NCBI GenBank assembly: GCA_016935985.1 | Contig: JAFGPW010000007.1 | Span: 22,956 to 86,955, forward strand | Direction: 5' to 3' | DNA from: Candidatus Woesearchaeota archaeon | Lineage (GTDB): Archaea; Nanobdellota; Nanobdellia; Woesearchaeales; JAFGPW01 | DNA length: 64,000 nucleotides | Shown here: positions 17,004-59,257 of the stretch, one piece after another | Layout: each line of letters starts with the position of its first letter | Numbering within the stretch: the first letter of the stretch is position 1 | Notes under the pieces: model-generated | Told to the model about the DNA's origin: nothing | The model's input: only the letters and a program-made list of their open reading frames with translations | Database searches by the model: none | Position numbers and translations under genes: made by a program

Positions 17004-17816
17004 TCACAGGAAGATGAGGAGCGAGACGGCCATGACGGCCATGCCGGCGACGAGGCCGACGATCGTCAGGTGCTGCTCGCCGAACTCGCTCGCCGCAGGG
17101 AGCAGCTGGTCGAAGGAGATGAAGACCATGATGCCGGCGACCGCCCCGAAGAGCGCCCCGAAGAGCTGGTCGGAGAGGAAGGGCAGGAGCATGAGGTAGG
17201 CGACGACCGCGCCGAGGGGTTCGGCGAAGCCGGTGAGGAAGGAGTACAGCACCGCCTTCTTCCTGCTCTTGGTCGCATAGTGTATCGGCACCGCGACCGC
17301 GATGCCTTCAGGTATGTTGTGGATGGCGATAGCGAACGCTATCGCGACGCCGAGCCGGTGGTCCGAGATGGCGGTCATGAACGTCGCTATCCCTTCAGGG
17401 AAGTTGTGGACCGTCATCACAAGGGCAGTTATCAATCCGATGCGATACAGCTTCCTGAAGCTGCGGGCCTTTATCTTGTCGTCGAGGTCCTCGACGCAGT
17501 GGTAATGATGGGGATTCTCGAACGACGGGACGAGCCGGTCGATCGCCACGGCGATGAGGATGCCTGCGAAGAACGCGAGCACCGAGAGCAGGGGACCCCA
17601 TTCGGTGCCGGCGGCTCCAATGAAGAGCCGTTGCGATTCGCCGAGCAGCTCAGCGAAGGACACATAGACCATGACGCCTGCCGAGAAGCCGAGGACTCCA
17701 GCAAGGAACCGCTTGTTGGTGTGGCGCGTGCAGCAGACGAGGAGCGAGCCTATCCCCGTCGAGAGTCCTGCGAGGAGCGTGAGCGTGAATGCGAACCAGA
17801 CGACGCCGGGATCCAT
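17004..17816 (-). CDS. zupT: ZIP-family zinc transporter ZupT
   Basis: HNFPEGIATF and HNIPEGIAVAVPI motifs with about 8 TM helices. Lies 7 nt downstream of the DtxR-like gene. Confidence 0.9.
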   Translation of the reverse strand: MDPGVVWFAFTLTLLAGLSTGIGSLLVCCTRHTNKRFLAGVLGFSAGVMVYVSFAELLGESQRLFIGAAGTEWGPLLSVLAFFAGILIAVAIDRLVPSFENPHHYHCVEDLDDKIKARSFRKLYRIGLITALVMTVHNFPEGIATFMTAISDHRLGVAIAFAIAIHNIPEGIAVAVPIHYATKSRKKAVLYSFLTGFAEPLGAVVAYLMLLPFLSDQLFGALFGAVAGIMVFISFDQLLPAASEFGEQHLTIVGLVAGMAVMAVSLLIFL

Positions 17817-17822
17817 GGCGCA

Positions 17823-18254
17823 TCAGTGCTCCTTGCCGCCGTCCGGATGGGGGATGTCTTTTCCGAAGGGGCTTGTCGTCGGGTTGCCGAGGAACGCATC
17901 GAGCTTCCTGACCGTGCCGTCCGAGAACGCGTGCTCGAGCCGATGCGCCTCGGCATGCACGGACCTGAGGTCGCATCCCAGAAAGTCCTTCAGGAAGTAC
18001 TCGATCACCCGGTGCTTCCACTTGATCGCCTTCGCGCGCCGCATGCCTTTCGCCGTCAGGAAGACCGGCCCGTAGCGTTCGCTGCGCACCAGGCCTTCCC
18101 GCTCGAGCTTCCTGAGCATCTGGCAGACGCTCGGCTTCGATATCCCCAGGCGATTCGCTATCTCGGTCGTGTGGATGCCTTCGGCAGGATCCTCGAGCAG
18201 CTCATAGAATTCGTAGAGGGTACCGAGGTAGTCCTCCGTCGCTCGTGCGTCCAT
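17823..18254 (-). CDS. DtxR/MntR-family metal-dependent transcriptional regulator
   Basis: EDYLGTLYEF...TTEIANRLGISKPSVCQMLRKLEREGLV...HRVIEYFL...AHRLEHAFS. Confidence 0.85.
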   Translation of the reverse strand: MDARATEDYLGTLYEFYELLEDPAEGIHTTEIANRLGISKPSVCQMLRKLEREGLVRSERYGPVFLTAKGMRRAKAIKWKHRVIEYFLKDFLGCDLRSVHAEAHRLEHAFSDGTVRKLDAFLGNPTTSPFGKDIPHPDGGKEH

Positions 18255-18306: not shown

Positions 18307-19008
18307 TCAGTAGTAGGTGACGAGCCGGACATCCTTGAAATGGGGCGCGAGCGCTTTCCTGAAGCCCTCGAACTCCTCCTTCGAGTAGCTGCCTTCCCCC
18401 TTCAGCTCGTTGTCCAGCATGTCGGCTGACGAGCGGAACTGCTGGAGCGTGTAGCGCTCGGCGCCGTGCAGCCATCTCCCGATCGAGAGGATGTCGTTTC
18501 CGTCGAGGAACTGAGGGACGACGGTCGTCCTGAACTCGTGCTCGATGCCGCTCTCCTTGAGGAGACGTATCGATTCCTCGACCTTCGCCATGTCGACGGC
18601 GGCGCCGGCGACGAGCGGGTACTTCTCCTTCGGCGCCTTGATGTCCATCGCCACGTAGTCGACGACCTTGCGCTCGATCATCTCCTTCAGGAGCGCCGGG
18701 TTGGTGCCGTTGGTGTCGACCTTGACGAGCAGGCCGAACCCCTTCAGCCGAGCGGCGAAGTCGGGGAGGTCCGGATTCAGCGTCGGCTCGCCGCCGGTGA
18801 TGACCACGCCGTCGATCCACTTCTTCTGCGCCACCAGCTGGTCGACGACCTCGTCCTCGTCGAGCGTCGGTAACTTGTGATACCCGACGACGAGCTCGGG
18901 GTTGTGGCAGAACGGGCAGCGCATGTTGCAGCCGGCGAGGAAGAGCACCGAGACCACCTTGTCAGGGTAGTTGTTCAGCGACGTCTTCTGGAAGCCCTTG
19001 ATCTCCAT
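18307..19008 (-). CDS. nrdG: Anaerobic ribonucleoside-triphosphate reductase activating protein (radical SAM)
   Basis: FLAGCNMRCPFCHNPELV (CxxxCxxC). About 230 aa. Adjacent to nrdD. Confidence 0.9.
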   Translation of the reverse strand: MEIKGFQKTSLNNYPDKVVSVLFLAGCNMRCPFCHNPELVVGYHKLPTLDEDEVVDQLVAQKKWIDGVVITGGEPTLNPDLPDFAARLKGFGLLVKVDTNGTNPALLKEMIERKVVDYVAMDIKAPKEKYPLVAGAAVDMAKVEESIRLLKESGIEHEFRTTVVPQFLDGNDILSIGRWLHGAERYTLQQFRSSADMLDNELKGEGSYSKEEFEGFRKALAPHFKDVRLVTYY

Positions 19009-19104: not shown

Positions 19105-21714
19105 TCACGCATGCTGGACCGCCTTCGCGCCCTTCTGCACATGGGAATCGGCCTCGCACGAGAACTTCGCCTCGTGCATCCGCTTCTCGAGGTACTCGGC
19201 GCGGTGCTTGTACTCCTCGCGCTTGCCCGCGTTCCAGTTCTGGACCGGCCGGTAGTAGCCGACGACCCTGCTGTAGACCTCGGTCTCCTTGCCGCACTCC
19301 GGACAGGTGGGCCGCTCGCCCTTGAGGTAGCCGTGCGTCCGGCACACCGAGAAGGTCGGGGTGAGCGAGAAGTACGGCAGGCGCGTGTTGTGCGCGATCC
19401 TCTTTACCATCAGCTTCGCCGCCTCTCCGCTCGAGACCGCCTCCCCGAGGAAGGTGTGGAACATCGTGCCGCCGGTATAGAGAGGCTGGATGTCGTTCTG
19501 GTGCTCGAGCGCGAGGATCGCGTCCTCGGTGTAGTCGACCGGCAGGTAGGTCGAGTTGGTGAGGAAGGGCTCCTCATCGCCCGCGGTGATGATGTCCGGG
19601 TACATCTCCTTGTCCTTCCTCGCGAAGCGGTAGCTCGCGCTCTCCGCCGGCGACGCCTCGAGGTTGTAGAGGTTCCCCGTCTCCTGCTGGTACTTCCTGA
19701 TGCGCTCGCGCATGTGGTTGAGCGTGTCGATCGCGAACTGCTTGCCCTCCTTTGACGCGATGTCCTTCCCCAGGAAGTTCAGGCACGCCTCGTTCATGCC
19801 GCAGAGGCCTATCGTCGAGAAGTGGTTCTTGAAGGTCCCGAGATACGTCTTGGTGTAGGGCATGAGCCCGTTCTTGAGGTTGCGTTCGACGATGAGCCGC
19901 TTTATCTCGAGCGACTGCTTCGCCCGGTCCATGTAGTAGTCGAGCCGCTTGTAGAAGTCCTCCTTCGTCTCCGCCTCGTAGCCGAGCCGGTTGACGTTGA
20001 GGGTGACGACGCCGAGCGAGCCGGTGCTGTCGCCGGGGCCCCACATGCAGCCGGGCCTGTTCATGAGCTCGTTGGTGTTGAGGTTGAGCCGGCAGCACAT
20101 CGCCCTGATCGACTTCGGGTCGAGGTCGGATCCGACGTAGTTCTGGAAGTAGGGGGTTCCGTATTTCGCGGTGAGCTCGAAGAGCAGCTTCGCGTTCTCG
20201 GTGTCCCAGTTGAAGTCCTTGGTCACGTTGTAGGTGGGGATCGGGAAGGTGAAGATCCTGCCGTTCGCGTCGCCTTTCAGCATCACCTCGATGAACGCCT
20301 TGTTGATCATGTCCATCTCGGCCTGGCAGTCAGCGTAGGTGAAATCCTGCGGCACGCCTCCGACGATCGCCTTCTCGTCCCTCATGTCCTCGGGGACCAC
20401 CCAGTCGAAGGTCAGGTTGGAGAAGGGGTACTGGCTGCCCCACCGCGAGGGGATGTTGAGCGAGAATATCAGCGTCTGCATCTCCTGCTTGACCTGCGTG
20501 TAGGTGAGGCTCTCGTTCTTCACGAACGGGGCGAGCAGGGTGTCGACAGAGCTGAACGCCTGCGCTCCCGCGAACTCCATCTGCAGGCAGCCGATGAAAT
20601 TGACCATGTGCTGGACCGCGACCGAGAGGTGCTTCGCGGGCTTCGCGTCGACCTTGTTCGGGACGTTGCCGAAGCCCATGGTCAGCAGGTTCTTGAGCGA
20701 CCAGCCGGCGCAGTAGCCGATGAAGCCGCCGGAGAGGTCATGGATGTGGACATAGCCCTTGTTGTGGGCCTCGGCGATCTCCGAGGTGTAGACCTCGTTG
20801 AGCGCGTAGTGGGCGATCATCTTGCCTGCCGCGTGCAGCATCAGGCCGGAGAAGGAGTAGTCGGTGTTCGAGTTCTCCTTCGTGCGCCAGCTCGTCTGGT
20901 TGAGGTATTCGGAGATGGTCGACTCGACGTCGATCACCATGTCATTCGTCTCGCGCAGCTTCTTGTGCTCCTGGCGGTAGAGGATGAAGGCCTTCGCGGT
21001 CTTCGCGTGCTCCTCCTCGATGAGCGTCTTCTCGACCTGGTCCTGGATGTCCTCGACGCTCGGGACGTGCTTGGTGTCGAACCGCTCCTCGAGGTTCCCG
21101 ACGATGATGTTGGTGATGTGGACCGCCATGTCGCGGTCCTCGCCGCCGACCGCTTTTGCCGCCGCGAAGATCGCGTTCGTGATCTTGCCGGGGTCGAAGT
21201 CGACGATAGTGCCGTCGCGCTTCTTGATCTTCGCGATATGGCTCTGCCGGGGCTGCTTGACCTTCGCCCGCTCGAGCTTCTTCAGCTCCTTCTCGAACTG
21301 GGAGGGGTCGGAGAATTTCTTGTAGACCGAGGTGAACCGCAGGTAGGCGACGTCGTCGAGTCCCTTGAGCTTGGCGATCACGAGGTCGCCGATCCTCTTT
21401 GAGGATATCTCGGTCGTGTCGTGCTTGTAGAGCTCTGATTCGATCTCATTGACGGTCTGATCGACCTGCTCTTCGGTTATCGGCCTCTTTTCGCATGCCG
21501 TGAGGATGCCTGCCTTCAGCTTCGCACGGTCGAAGTCCTGCTTGCTCCCGTCGCGCTTGAGGACGGTCAGCCGGACCTCTTCGATCTTCTCATAGGTGGT
21601 GAAGCGCTTATGGCAGGAGAGGCACTCCCTCCGGCGCCGGTTCGAGCCCGTCGCCTCGCTCTCGCGCTTATCGATGACCTTCGTGTTGTTCTCGTTGCAG
21701 TATGGACACTTCAT
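19105..21714 (-). CDS. nrdD: NrdR (Zn-ribbon + ATP-cone) fused in frame to class III anaerobic ribonucleotide reductase NrdD
   Basis: ATG 21714: MKCPYCNENNTKVIDKRE...RRRRECLSCHKRFTTYEKIE plus an ATP-cone, then a second ATP-cone (IKKRDGTIVDFDPGKI), the NrdD body, a C-terminal CxxC...CPECG and glycyl-radical RVVGYYRPV. There is no intervening stop. Confidence 0.9.
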   Translation of the reverse strand: MKCPYCNENNTKVIDKRESEATGSNRRRRECLSCHKRFTTYEKIEEVRLTVLKRDGSKQDFDRAKLKAGILTACEKRPITEEQVDQTVNEIESELYKHDTTEISSKRIGDLVIAKLKGLDDVAYLRFTSVYKKFSDPSQFEKELKKLERAKVKQPRQSHIAKIKKRDGTIVDFDPGKITNAIFAAAKAVGGEDRDMAVHITNIIVGNLEERFDTKHVPSVEDIQDQVEKTLIEEEHAKTAKAFILYRQEHKKLRETNDMVIDVESTISEYLNQTSWRTKENSNTDYSFSGLMLHAAGKMIAHYALNEVYTSEIAEAHNKGYVHIHDLSGGFIGYCAGWSLKNLLTMGFGNVPNKVDAKPAKHLSVAVQHMVNFIGCLQMEFAGAQAFSSVDTLLAPFVKNESLTYTQVKQEMQTLIFSLNIPSRWGSQYPFSNLTFDWVVPEDMRDEKAIVGGVPQDFTYADCQAEMDMINKAFIEVMLKGDANGRIFTFPIPTYNVTKDFNWDTENAKLLFELTAKYGTPYFQNYVGSDLDPKSIRAMCCRLNLNTNELMNRPGCMWGPGDSTGSLGVVTLNVNRLGYEAETKEDFYKRLDYYMDRAKQSLEIKRLIVERNLKNGLMPYTKTYLGTFKNHFSTIGLCGMNEACLNFLGKDIASKEGKQFAIDTLNHMRERIRKYQQETGNLYNLEASPAESASYRFARKDKEMYPDIITAGDEEPFLTNSTYLPVDYTEDAILALEHQNDIQPLYTGGTMFHTFLGEAVSSGEAAKLMVKRIAHNTRLPYFSLTPTFSVCRTHGYLKGERPTCPECGKETEVYSRVVGYYRPVQNWNAGKREEYKHRAEYLEKRMHEAKFSCEADSHVQKGAKAVQHA

Positions 21715-21720
21715 TGCCAC

Positions 21721-21736
21721 CACCTATATATGGTTG
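21721..21736 (-). promoter_or_regulatory. NrdR-box-like palindrome (proximal): CAACCATATATAGGTG
   Basis: 9/10 match to the core CwAtATaTwG of the NrdR-box consensus. Lies 7 nt upstream of ATG 21714. Confidence 0.5.
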
Positions 21737-21752
21737 TTGATGTTGATGCTGG

Positions 21753-21768
21753 ATACAATATCTAGTGG
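21753..21768 (-). promoter_or_regulatory. NrdR-box-like palindrome (distal): CCACTAGATATTGTAT
   Basis: 13/16 match to acaCwAtATaTwGtgt. Its centre is 32 bp from the proximal box. Confidence 0.55.
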
Positions 21769-21783
21769 TCTAATCGGCAAGCT

Positions 21784-21794
21784 CATATTTAAGC
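21784..21794 (-). promoter_or_regulatory. TATA-like box (minus strand GCTTAAATATG) for nrdR-nrdD
   Basis: AT-rich element about 16 nt upstream of the distal NrdR box. A start about 25 nt downstream would fall inside the boxes. Confidence 0.4.
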
Positions 21795-22057
21795 TTTTAT
21801 GAAATATAACACTGTAATTATATGGTATATGTTCTGACAATGCATGTTACATTTGCTGAAAACAAATGCGGTTCTGGCAGGAGAGGCCTTGGGATGCCCG
21901 GAACAGCCCTTCGCTGCCACCAGGAAATGACAGACATAGCGCCAGCAAGTTTTTGTCACGATTGAGTAGGTATTTCCACAAGTTTTTTAAACGCGTCCGC
22001 ATATCCGCCTGGAAACCCCCGGATTGGGGCCCTCAAACCGTACGACACGTGAAAGCC

Positions 22058-23710
22058 ATGTTCGACCAGAAGAACAAGCTCCCCGACCACCTGATCGGCC
22101 TAGGGAGCAAGGCGAGGCATATCCCGGTGATCCCTGAGACGAACCAGGGGCGCGAGCCGGATGTCAACACGCGCATCGTCGGCCTGTTCGGCGGCCGCGG
22201 GACCCGGATGTATGTCTATGTCCAGGCACGGTTCCCTGATACGGCCATCTACCTGGACAAGGAGAAGACGAAGCGGCGGAAGGTGAAGGCGGGGACTGCC
22301 GCAGTCTTCCTCGACGACCTCCTCGACATGCACCAGTTCAGGAACGAGGGGTTCATACGCTCGAAGCCCGCGGTGCCGGTGCTCGGGGAGGACAGCCGGT
22401 TCGTGGATTTCATCATGACCCAGGCATACTATGCGAAGGATGTCTTCAGGACCGATTCCTTCCTCGCCATCCATCAGCACGAGCCCTTCTCGTTCAAGAT
22501 CCACCTGCACGACGCGTTCGGCAAGTCCCGGGGACGGTTCGATCTCGTGAACACCCAGCCCCATTCCGAGGGCTCCTGGTACCAGGGAACTGGCCATGCC
22601 CTCCTGATGAACTGGGACAAGATCTTCAGGAACAACCCGAAATACATCATCAAGCTCAACGGCGACGCCGCGACCAACCGCGACCTCGGCGACATGATGA
22701 CCTATTTCCTCGACGGTGACAAGGATGCGGTGCTCGGCGTCCGGAGGATCGGGGACCGTGCGGCCCTTGCCGAGTTCGGCACCGTCCAGACGATCGCCGG
22801 GAACCGCATCGTCAAGTTCTCCGAGAAGCTCCCGGATCCCCCATCGAATCTCGTGAATGAGGATATCTACATCATCAAGTCAGACGTCCTTAAGGATATC
22901 CTGCTTGAGATGGAGGCATCGAACGCCGCTGAAGGGAAGCAGAACTGGGACCTCTCGCGGTTCCTCGAGAAGCACATCGGAGACTACCGCTTCTATGCCC
23001 ATGAGGACACCCGGAAGCGTACCGGGAACGTGCTGCCGTTCTGGGACGACGTCGGCAAGGTCTCGACCATGCGGAGCGTCCATGACAAGTGGCTTTCCGC
23101 ATTCCATCTGTATTACCATGAGAAGGACCGTCCGCTGCTCGGCCTCACGAACGCCATCCCAAAGCACGAGATCAGCAGGGGGGTGCCGAGCGACTACCTC
23201 GAGCAGGGCAGGTACTTCCCCGGCCTCTCCGCAGAGGAGGCCGAGCGGCTCCATACGGTGCTCACCTTCAACCTCACCTCGCACAGCTCATGCCTGTATT
23301 CGGAGCAGGTGCTGGGCTCGGTCCTCTTCCCTGGGGTATCGATCGACGCCGGTTCCTCGGTCGTCTATTCCATCCTCATGCACAACGCGAACGTCTCCGG
23401 CAGCACGGTCGCGAACACCCTCACCGACAAGAACGTCGTCTTCGATGGCGAGAACCAGGTGGGCATCGCGCTCGAGAGCACGCGCATCAACCAGTACTTC
23501 CCCGACATCGGCGGCCTGACCCTCCTCGGCAGGCAGGTGCGAGTGCCGAAGGGATACACGATCGGCAGGTCGGTGCTCATCTTCCCCGAGGCGAAGGGCG
23601 ACGACTTCGACCATTACCTGCTCGACGACAGGATCCGCCGGACGAAGGACAGGACGATCCCCGACGGCGCTGTCGTCATGCACGGGCTGAAGAACGAGTT
23701 CCGGATCTGA
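22058..23710 (+). CDS. GlgC-like sugar-1-phosphate nucleotidyltransferase with left-handed beta-helix C-terminus (divergent, with insertions)
   Basis: VGLFGGRGTRM (GGxGxR), KPAVPVLG, WYQGTGHAL, and a C-terminal hexapeptide-repeat-like region. ATG 22058, with TTTTTAAA about 70 nt upstream. Confidence 0.7.
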   Translation: MFDQKNKLPDHLIGLGSKARHIPVIPETNQGREPDVNTRIVGLFGGRGTRMYVYVQARFPDTAIYLDKEKTKRRKVKAGTAAVFLDDLLDMHQFRNEGFIRSKPAVPVLGEDSRFVDFIMTQAYYAKDVFRTDSFLAIHQHEPFSFKIHLHDAFGKSRGRFDLVNTQPHSEGSWYQGTGHALLMNWDKIFRNNPKYIIKLNGDAATNRDLGDMMTYFLDGDKDAVLGVRRIGDRAALAEFGTVQTIAGNRIVKFSEKLPDPPSNLVNEDIYIIKSDVLKDILLEMEASNAAEGKQNWDLSRFLEKHIGDYRFYAHEDTRKRTGNVLPFWDDVGKVSTMRSVHDKWLSAFHLYYHEKDRPLLGLTNAIPKHEISRGVPSDYLEQGRYFPGLSAEEAERLHTVLTFNLTSHSSCLYSEQVLGSVLFPGVSIDAGSSVVYSILMHNANVSGSTVANTLTDKNVVFDGENQVGIALESTRINQYFPDIGGLTLLGRQVRVPKGYTIGRSVLIFPEAKGDDFDHYLLDDRIRRTKDRTIPDGAVVMHGLKNEFRI

Positions 23711-46124: not shown

Positions 46125-46241
46125 GGGCTTGTAGCTCAGTCTGGTAGAGCGCCTGGTTGGCATACGGAAGACAGGGTCTCCCGATCCTGTCCTTCCAGTC
46201 CAGAAATCAGGAGGCCTCGGGTTCGAATCCCGACAAGTCCA
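46125..46241 (+). tRNA. tRNA-Ala (anticodon GGC) with a 43-nt intron at the canonical 37/38 position (46163-46205)
   Basis: Acceptor GGGCTTG/CAAGTCC with the G3:U70 Ala identity pair. D-arm GCTC-AGTCTGGTA-GAGC. Anticodon stem CCTGG/TCAGG. T-arm TCGGG-TTCGAAT-CCCGA. The intron forms a GGAAGACAGG/CCTGTCCTTCC hairpin. Confidence 0.85.
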
Positions 46242-46834: not shown

Positions 46835-46967
46835 GCCGCCCTAGCTCAGTCGGTTAGAGCGCTACGCTCATAAGCTGTATGAGCGATGAGGAGGGCATCC
46901 CCTCCGATGAACGAGACCATGTAGCGCGGAAACGTAGAGGTCCGGGGTTCAAGTCCCCGGGGCGGCA
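46835..46967 (+). tRNA. tRNA with CAU anticodon (elongator Met or Ile2) carrying a 59-nt intron at 37/38 (46873-46931)
   Basis: Acceptor GCCGCCC/GGGCGGC. D-arm GCTC-AGTCGGTTA-GAGC. Anticodon stem CTACG/CGTAG with loop CTCATA|A. T-arm CGGGG-TTCAAGT-CCCCG. Confidence 0.85.
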
Positions 46968-59173: not shown

Positions 59174-59257
59174 GCGGGGGTGCCGGAGCGGTCAAACGGG
59201 CATGGTTCAGGGCCATGTGGCTTAGCGCCTTCGAGGGTTCGAATCCCTTCCCCCGCA
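59174..59257 (+). tRNA. tRNA-Leu (anticodon CAG), long variable arm
   Basis: Acceptor GCGGGGG/CCCCCGC. Anticodon arm CATGG-TTCAGGG-CCATG. 15-nt variable arm. T-arm GAGGG-TTCGAAT-CCCTT. Confidence 0.85.

Follow-up and report, generated by a model that had tools for sequence, protein, structure and literature searches.

We analysed a stretch of 64,000 nucleotides (nt) from contig JAFGPW010000007.1, hereafter the window, to which all coordinates refer. It carries on its minus strand a gene in which the repressor NrdR is joined in frame to the class III (anaerobic) ribonucleotide reductase (RNR) NrdD. The open frame at 19105..21723 (−) is free of stops, and a GTG at 21723 is listed as an alternative upstream start. 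Since homologues all open with M-K/R-C-P at the equivalent methionine, we assigned the start to ATG 21714. The nrdR-nrdD fusion gene, called from its open reading frame (ORF), its Pfam and NCBIfam matches and the homologue starts, spans 19105..21714 (−) and encodes 869 amino acids (aa) plus a stop.

The N-terminal part of the protein is NrdR-like throughout. Residues 1-42 (21589..21714, −) make up the NrdR zinc-ribbon, which the Pfam family PF22811 (Zn_ribbon_NrdR) matches from end to end (1-42/42, 62.5 bits, cutoff 27.2), its cysteines forming two CxxC pairs, C3-x2-C6 and C31-x2-C34. The NCBIfam NrdR equivalog TIGR00244 is also matched in full (1-147/147), with 180.6 bits for the whole protein against a cutoff of 124.65 and 186.6 bits when aa 1-156 are taken alone. 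From this model and from alignment to NrdR structures, aa 48-147 (21274..21573, −) were assigned to an NrdR-type ATP-cone, the predicted ATP/dATP sensor. A basic linker of ~13 aa, ERAKVKQPRQSHI (aa 148-160; 21235..21273, −), then separates the NrdR and NrdD matches.

The remainder of the chain is a complete NrdD, which the NrdD equivalog NF006126 (NCBIfam) covers from aa 161 to aa 841 (1043.3 bits, cutoff 548); TIGR02487 matches as well (544.3 bits, cutoff 326). It begins with an RNR-type ATP-cone at aa 161-252 (20959..21234, −), where the second PF03477 stretch (162-252) lies, so that Pfam finds two ATP-cones in the protein. The catalytic core at aa 280-841 (19192..20877, −) matches PF13597 over 1-562/562 (618.6 bits) and includes the C-terminal Zn site (C791-x2-H794 and C804-x2-C807) and the glycyl-radical motif RVVGYYRPV (aa 816-824, nt 19243-19269). 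An initial annotation of this DNA had read the ORF from ATG 21714 as an NrdR zinc-ribbon and ATP-cone, followed by a basic linker of ~15 aa and, with no intervening stop, by a second ATP-cone and a full NrdD ending in this motif. The profile matches confirm that order of parts, including the identity of the N-terminus, and make the linker slightly shorter.

Structural comparison gave the same division. The N-terminal 148 aa align without gaps to E. coli NrdR structures (45% identity, E about 1e-36) and, again gaplessly, to Streptomyces coelicolor NrdR, while the rest of the protein matches solved NrdD structures; in a search of the PDB, no single chain spanned both parts. An AlphaFold model built on a 54-sequence alignment has confident domains (mean predicted local distance difference test, pLDDT, 81) separated by low-confidence hinges at aa 43-46 and aa 150-155 (pLDDT <50 at the latter), and in this model the NrdR module looks tethered through a flexible linker. 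One polypeptide unites a catalytic domain with a domain of the sequence-specific DNA-binding type. NrdR is defined as a free-standing protein of 140-220 residues; because the module here is embedded at the N-terminus of an 869-aa chain, we describe it as an NrdR domain and not as a typical NrdR protein.

The residues by which NrdR reads DNA are retained in the fusion. S. coelicolor NrdR contacts DNA through R12, D15, R17, R26-29 and R37, with D15 and R17 conferring sequence specificity (PMC9110341), and the zinc-ribbon residues K12, D15, R17, R26-29 and R37 of the window protein map onto these contacts. Across 54 fusion proteins, C3, C6, D15, R17, R27-29, C31, C34 and R37 never vary, and conservation reaches 90% or more at K12 and R26. 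At the nucleotide site we compared 11 named residues (V48, K50, R51, E56, F58, K62, K69, Q72, F124, V127 and Y128), 8 of which are identical between the window protein and S. coelicolor NrdR.

Immediately downstream, 96 nt from the fusion gene and on the same strand, lies nrdG (18307..19008, −), which encodes the radical-SAM activase of NrdD (TIGR02495, NrdG2, 200.7 bits, cutoff 131.15) with Radical_SAM and Fer4_12 domains.

NrdR boxes and promoter upstream of the fusion gene

Two palindromes had been noted upstream of the start codon as resembling NrdR boxes, and we find them as described: a distal box, CCACTAGATATTGTAT, at 21753..21768 (−) and a proximal box, CAACCATATATAGGTG, at 21721..21736 (−), with centres 32 bp apart. 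The intervening spacer of 16 bp falls inside the 14-17 bp required for tight NrdR binding (PMC12051234). We scored the whole window on both strands (127,970 positions) with a position weight matrix built from 106 sites of relatives, the window itself being excluded. The distal box ranked 1st at 20.5 bits, against a training median of 19.4, and the proximal box ranked 3rd-5th at 9.1 bits. Together the pair scores 29.6 bits, whereas the next independent pair in the window reaches about 0.6. When the 151-bp intergenic region was dinucleotide-shuffled 20,000 times, only 1 shuffle attained the pair score (p about 5e-5), and 36 other AT-rich tiles of the window gave pair scores of at most −3.8.

The same arrangement recurs in relatives. 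Related loci were collected with a clade alignment; a single-protein query on exact 8-mers had returned only about 5 fusion loci. In each locus we searched the 250 bp upstream of the nrdR or fusion start with the published bacterial consensus, fixed in advance, and kept the best pair 16-60 bp apart. This best pair lay at 31-33 bp in 53 of 76 loci (70%), with a mode of 32 and a median pair score of 26, compared with 6.8% of dinucleotide shuffles (n = 760, median score 20) and 6.0% of flanking control regions (n = 199, median score 19). Scored in bits, the pairs in front of fused genes (median 38.8) do not fall short of those in front of unfused operons (median 34.7). The question of whether the palindromes stand out from AT-rich background and are conserved in relatives is answered in their favour, and on this comparison both are real NrdR boxes.

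The promoter core lies at 21786..21799 (−), 17 nt upstream of the distal box. It consists of a TATA box, CTTAAATA (21786-21793), inside the span 21784-21794 first marked as TATA-like, and a purine-rich TAAAAG (21794-21799) resembling a transcription factor B recognition element (BRE). A BRE/TATA element (cgaaa..TTTAWATA) precedes box 1, which in the window is the distal box, in nearly all related loci. Best-match searches upstream of box 1 placed the gap between TATA and box at modes of 7-10 nt and 14-21 nt, the latter peaking at 17, the gap seen in the window. Position-by-position information content upstream of box 1 gave no sharp TATA peak, because the TATA offset varies among relatives.

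Archaeal transcription usually begins about 23 nt past the TATA box, which puts the predicted transcription start near 21763, within the distal box. The proximal box overlaps a Shine-Dalgarno-like element, GGTGGTGG (21717-21724), and leaves 6 nt to the ATG; an equal layout, with 4-8 nt between proximal box and start codon, is seen in eight relatives. The two boxes appear to be placed where archaeal repressors typically block polymerase recruitment.

The junction, its relatives and its origin

Between aa 125 and aa 180 the reading frame is free of stops, and potential start codons (ATG, GTG or TTG) are absent from all three frames. GC content at third codon positions (GC3) is 0.93-1.00 through the linker region and 0.94 over the whole gene, while neighbouring intergenic DNA has 33-47% GC. 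Because the junction lacks a stop or start and coding GC3 runs through it unbroken, a single base error in an operon gap cannot explain the fusion. Two observations would fit a sequencing or assembly error that joined adjacent nrdR and nrdD genes: in about half of the related genomes the genes are separate and only a very short distance apart, and a rough NrdD tree places the window among unfused relatives. We nevertheless consider such an artefact highly improbable: besides the features of the junction itself, the linker is as long as in other fusions of the same form (class A, below), and the architecture occurs in more than 100 independent sequences. The error hypothesis was rejected on the junction analysis and the recurrence in relatives, and an internal start codon for a separate NrdD was rejected as well, none being present near the junction.

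That junction also bears on whether the protein persists as one chain. The fusion could be made as a single polypeptide and then separated into NrdR and NrdD by linker cleavage or, at the level of translation, by internal initiation, leaving the cell with an ordinary system of two proteins, and a linker predicted to be flexible and exposed is what such a scheme would use. Yet the linker is GC-rich coding DNA without a promoter-like AT-rich stretch and there is no start codon nearby, and a further class of fusions (class B) has almost no linker between zinc-ribbon and NrdD cone, so that it is not separable into two working proteins. We judge separation to be quite unlikely.

The fusion is widespread. 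The Zn-ribbon, ATP-cone and NRDD architecture is present in 104 of the 120 best matches in a database of 5.8 billion proteins; 103 other protein clusters share the NrdR-NrdD fusion, all archaeal and mostly DPANN, and the named matches come from Woese-, Nano-, Aenigm- and related DPANN archaea. The fused ORF was found in 36 non-redundant GTDB species-representative genomes, again all archaeal. One complete genome that carries it is the Woesearchaeota chromosome OY970338.1 (locus L140). Three forms can be told apart by length and composition. Class A, the window's form (~855-885 aa), has a full NrdR followed by the NrdD cone and core. Class C (~810-830 aa) has the same architecture with a shorter C-terminus. 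In class B (~750-790 aa), the zinc-ribbon is attached directly to NrdD's own cone. Class B proteins (~755 aa) have no NrdR cone, and their N-termini score 64-67 bits against the TIGR00244 cutoff of 124.65; they fall below the NrdR equivalog cutoff because the cone is of the RNR type. Their loci keep both the zinc-ribbon and upstream tandem NrdR boxes at 30-32 bp.

The class B members are the proteins P0041, P0045 and P0064 and the loci L113, L115, L126, L128, L130, L135, L141 and L155. Other variants were seen among the relatives: a glutaredoxin domain is present at the C-terminus of close unfused NrdD relatives (P0044, P0056 and P0096), and several fused relatives reach 1100-1280 aa with the intein domains PF14890 and PF14528 (P0025, P0047, P0100 and P0116).

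Unfused relatives indicate how the fusion came about. In 41 related loci, nrdR is a separate gene (144-161 aa, with its own stop) directly upstream of nrdD. In the 35 of these loci whose nrdD start could be placed, the distance from nrdR stop to nrdD start ranges from −4 to 99 nt and is mostly below 30 nt. About half of the related DPANN genomes, within loci L081-L160, keep the two genes apart, and the true stop after nrdR in these loci reveals an operon origin: by comparison of the loci, the fusion arose from an nrdR-nrdD operon that lost its short intergenic gap. The fusion first recorded here is real, but it is no one-off, being widespread in DPANN archaea and born from adjacent operon genes.

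A rough neighbour-joining tree built on the NrdD core shows fused and unfused states intermixed, which implies several fusion or fission events. The window is about equidistant from fused and unfused relatives (53-58% identity in the NrdR half, 68-73% in the NrdD half). Since the earliest-branching clade of this rough tree is wholly fused, the reverse of a merger is conceivable, and NrdR might, more speculatively, have split off from a protein composed of zinc-ribbon, ATP-cone and reductase.

Some taxonomic labels among the relatives call for caution. nrdR-nrdD operons with boxes, encoding proteins 56-70% identical to the window protein, occur in metagenome-assembled genomes (MAGs) labelled as bacterial (Muiribacteriota, Caldatribacterium, Aminicenantes; L104, L138, L159, L136, L137 and L123), which horizontal transfer or mis-binning could explain. 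Many contigs labelled 'uncultured Methanosarcinales' group with Woesearchaeota/Nanoarchaeota by EF-2 and NrdD, and that label is probably wrong.

A candidate self-repressing reductase

We think it likely that this single polypeptide is a class III reductase together with its own NrdR repressor, a self-repressing protein responsive to dATP/ATP. From comparative evidence, the conserved boxes and the conserved contact residues, we predict that the fused protein binds DNA, and the steps of the mechanism are drawn by analogy from the S. coelicolor and E. coli NrdR structures. Dimerisation of NrdD would bring two NrdR modules together. As dATP rises relative to ATP, the NrdR-type ATP-cones would load dATP/ATP, and two dimers could then seat two zinc-ribbon pairs (four ribbons) on the two boxes. 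With the predicted transcription start (about 21763) under the distal box and the ribosome-binding site under the proximal one, occupied boxes would block RNA polymerase and shut off nrdRD-nrdG. With ATP alone, the modules would adopt a non-DNA-binding form and the operon would be expressed. The second cone, of the RNR type, presumably still inhibits the enzyme allosterically, as such cones usually do. Since repressor and enzyme would be made 1:1, the feedback would report the amount of enzyme as well as the dATP/ATP ratio.

Either the fusion or an nrdR gene just upstream of nrdD is conserved, with boxes, across DPANN archaea. With somewhat less assurance, we lean towards the stronger proposal that the reductase senses dATP and itself represses the operon that encodes it, one molecule performing both the allosteric and the transcriptional shut-down. 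In class B proteins, a single ATP-cone would serve both.

Several points weigh against self-repression. The function of any fused protein, DNA binding included, is predicted from sequence comparison, and the position of the TATA box is the sole basis for placing the transcription start. The weak proximal box scores 9.1 bits, below both the median (19.4) and the 10th percentile (12.8) of the training sites. Three of the 11 nucleotide-site residues differ from S. coelicolor NrdR (E56→Q, K69→T and Q72→E), although E at the position of Q72 is also found in E. coli NrdR. Repressors are not usually present at the dosage of an abundant enzyme, and the octamers and dodecamers formed by free NrdR may be sterically impossible with an enzyme of ~80 kDa attached, in which case the switch may differ. 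A separate nrdR outside the 64-kb window could also be the real box binder.

This last point is part of a different account, in which the fused NrdR module stays off DNA as an extra allosteric or oligomerisation module and the boxes are bound by an NrdR encoded elsewhere in the genome. Extra ATP-cones act in this way in some class I reductases; ATP-cones are mobile and often duplicated at RNR N-termini (PMC11226230; PMC9110341), and the weak proximal box would suit such an account too. The conservation pattern points the other way. The zinc-ribbon has no known role besides DNA binding, and its contacts stay invariant or nearly so in 54 diverged fusions. Class B has lost the NrdR cone and kept the zinc-ribbon and boxes, the opposite of what a purely allosteric module would lead one to expect, which argues that the ribbon is retained for DNA binding and not as an accessory to an allosteric cone. 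Neither a second NrdR-like ORF nor a second box pair was seen within the window, and DPANN genomes are small, which makes a redundant nrdR copy less likely. We therefore regard a solely allosteric module as unlikely. The initial annotation had left self-repression and a new allosteric module side by side; of the two, self-repression is the better supported.

Genomic context and known systems

The window's own genes bear out the archaeal context that had been proposed. It contains intron-containing tRNAs, aEF-1alpha, aEF-2, S10, L7Ae and an archaeal histone, and its EF-2 is 66-75% identical to those of Woesearchaeota/Nanoarchaeota MAGs, with no close species representative. By these markers the host is a DPANN archaeon. 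At 61.5% GC the window is unusual for DPANN; its GC fraction is around 0.9 at third codon positions and around 0.33 between genes. Because of the high GC, it contains many long spurious antisense ORFs. The related DPANN loci, unlike the window, are AT-rich.

Beyond nrdG, at 17004-18254 (−), come a DtxR-type metal-dependent repressor (17823-18254) and a ZIP-family metal transporter (17004-17816). On the other side, a divergent ORF at 21866-23710 (+) encodes NTP_transferase and hexapeptide repeats. About 165 aa precede its first Pfam domain, so its true start may be further downstream, in which case the shared intergenic region is longer than 151 bp. An Rfam scan of the window returned tRNAs only and implicates no RNA element. 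Two of the Rfam tRNA genes, 46125-46241 (+) and 46835-46967 (+), are 117 and 133 nt long, presumably contain introns and were missed by ARAGORN, whereas an ARAGORN tRNA-Leu at 59174-59257 (+) is absent from the Rfam list at gathering threshold.

Specialist papers up to 2025 treat NrdR as bacterial, and as absent or rare in archaea (PMC9110341; PMC12051234). In the open-access PMC and bioRxiv literature we found no description of an NrdR-RNR fusion or of DPANN NrdR boxes, though one may exist elsewhere; both halves already carry automated labels, in JGI product names and Pfam architectures. The present data show that numerous DPANN lineages have nrdR-nrdD operons or fusions with canonical boxes. 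NrdR is thus common in DPANN archaea, which changes the picture of its distribution, against the view that it is rare in archaea, and places it on TATA/BRE promoters. The fusion also offers a natural experiment in which repressor dose is tied to enzyme dose and transcriptional and allosteric cones sit on one chain, an arrangement that class B relatives reduce from two cones to one. Free NrdR is notoriously unstable on purification, and an enzyme-anchored NrdR might be easier to work with when asking how nucleotide sensing by the cone is coupled to DNA binding. For DPANN genome streamlining, the fusion is an example of a regulator merged with its target. We expect it to be moderately surprising to NrdR and RNR specialists, and it offers a testable natural system.

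RNR genes are known to join operon partners or accessory domains readily, as in the eukaryotic NrdD-NrdG fusion (PMC3019208), glutaredoxin-NrdB and the multiple ATP-cones of Pseudomonas aeruginosa NrdA. Those fusions bring in catalytic or redox partners or allosteric domains, and none brings in a transcription factor. Class III NrdDs with an N-terminal ATP-cone (P. copri, S. thermophilus, T. maritima and phage T4) share with the window protein the catalytic fold, the glycyl-radical motif, the C-terminal Zn site, the RNR-type ATP-cone and an adjacent NrdG; the window protein adds a 160-residue N-terminal NrdR module that is in no solved structure of these enzymes.

PutA and BirA are enzyme-repressors, or 'trigger enzymes', which likewise combine catalysis and metabolite-switched, sequence-specific repression of their own pathway genes in one chain, as we infer for the fusion. 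Their folds are unrelated to it, and the DNA-binding module of the fusion can be recognised as a repressor that is otherwise independent and was merged in recently from the gene next to it.

The closest counterpart is the free-standing bacterial NrdR, as in S. coelicolor nrdR-nrdJ and E. coli nrdDG, with which the fusion shares the zinc-ribbon, the NrdR-type ATP-cone and the DNA-contact residues. Bacterial NrdR operons likewise have tandem 16-bp palindromic boxes, separated by 15-16 bp, that lie over promoter and transcription start, and in S. coelicolor nrdRJ the repressor is co-expressed with its reductase, as it is in the fusion. Unlike bacterial NrdR, the repressor here forms one covalent chain with the enzyme, so that the two are made in a fixed 1:1 proportion, the promoter has archaeal TATA/BRE elements in place of −35/−10 elements, and the box consensus is shifted slightly towards ACACAAtATrTTGTGk. 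Its parts and logic are familiar ones, and by its predicted function the fusion would work like a known NrdR system, especially the autoregulated nrdR-RNR operons.

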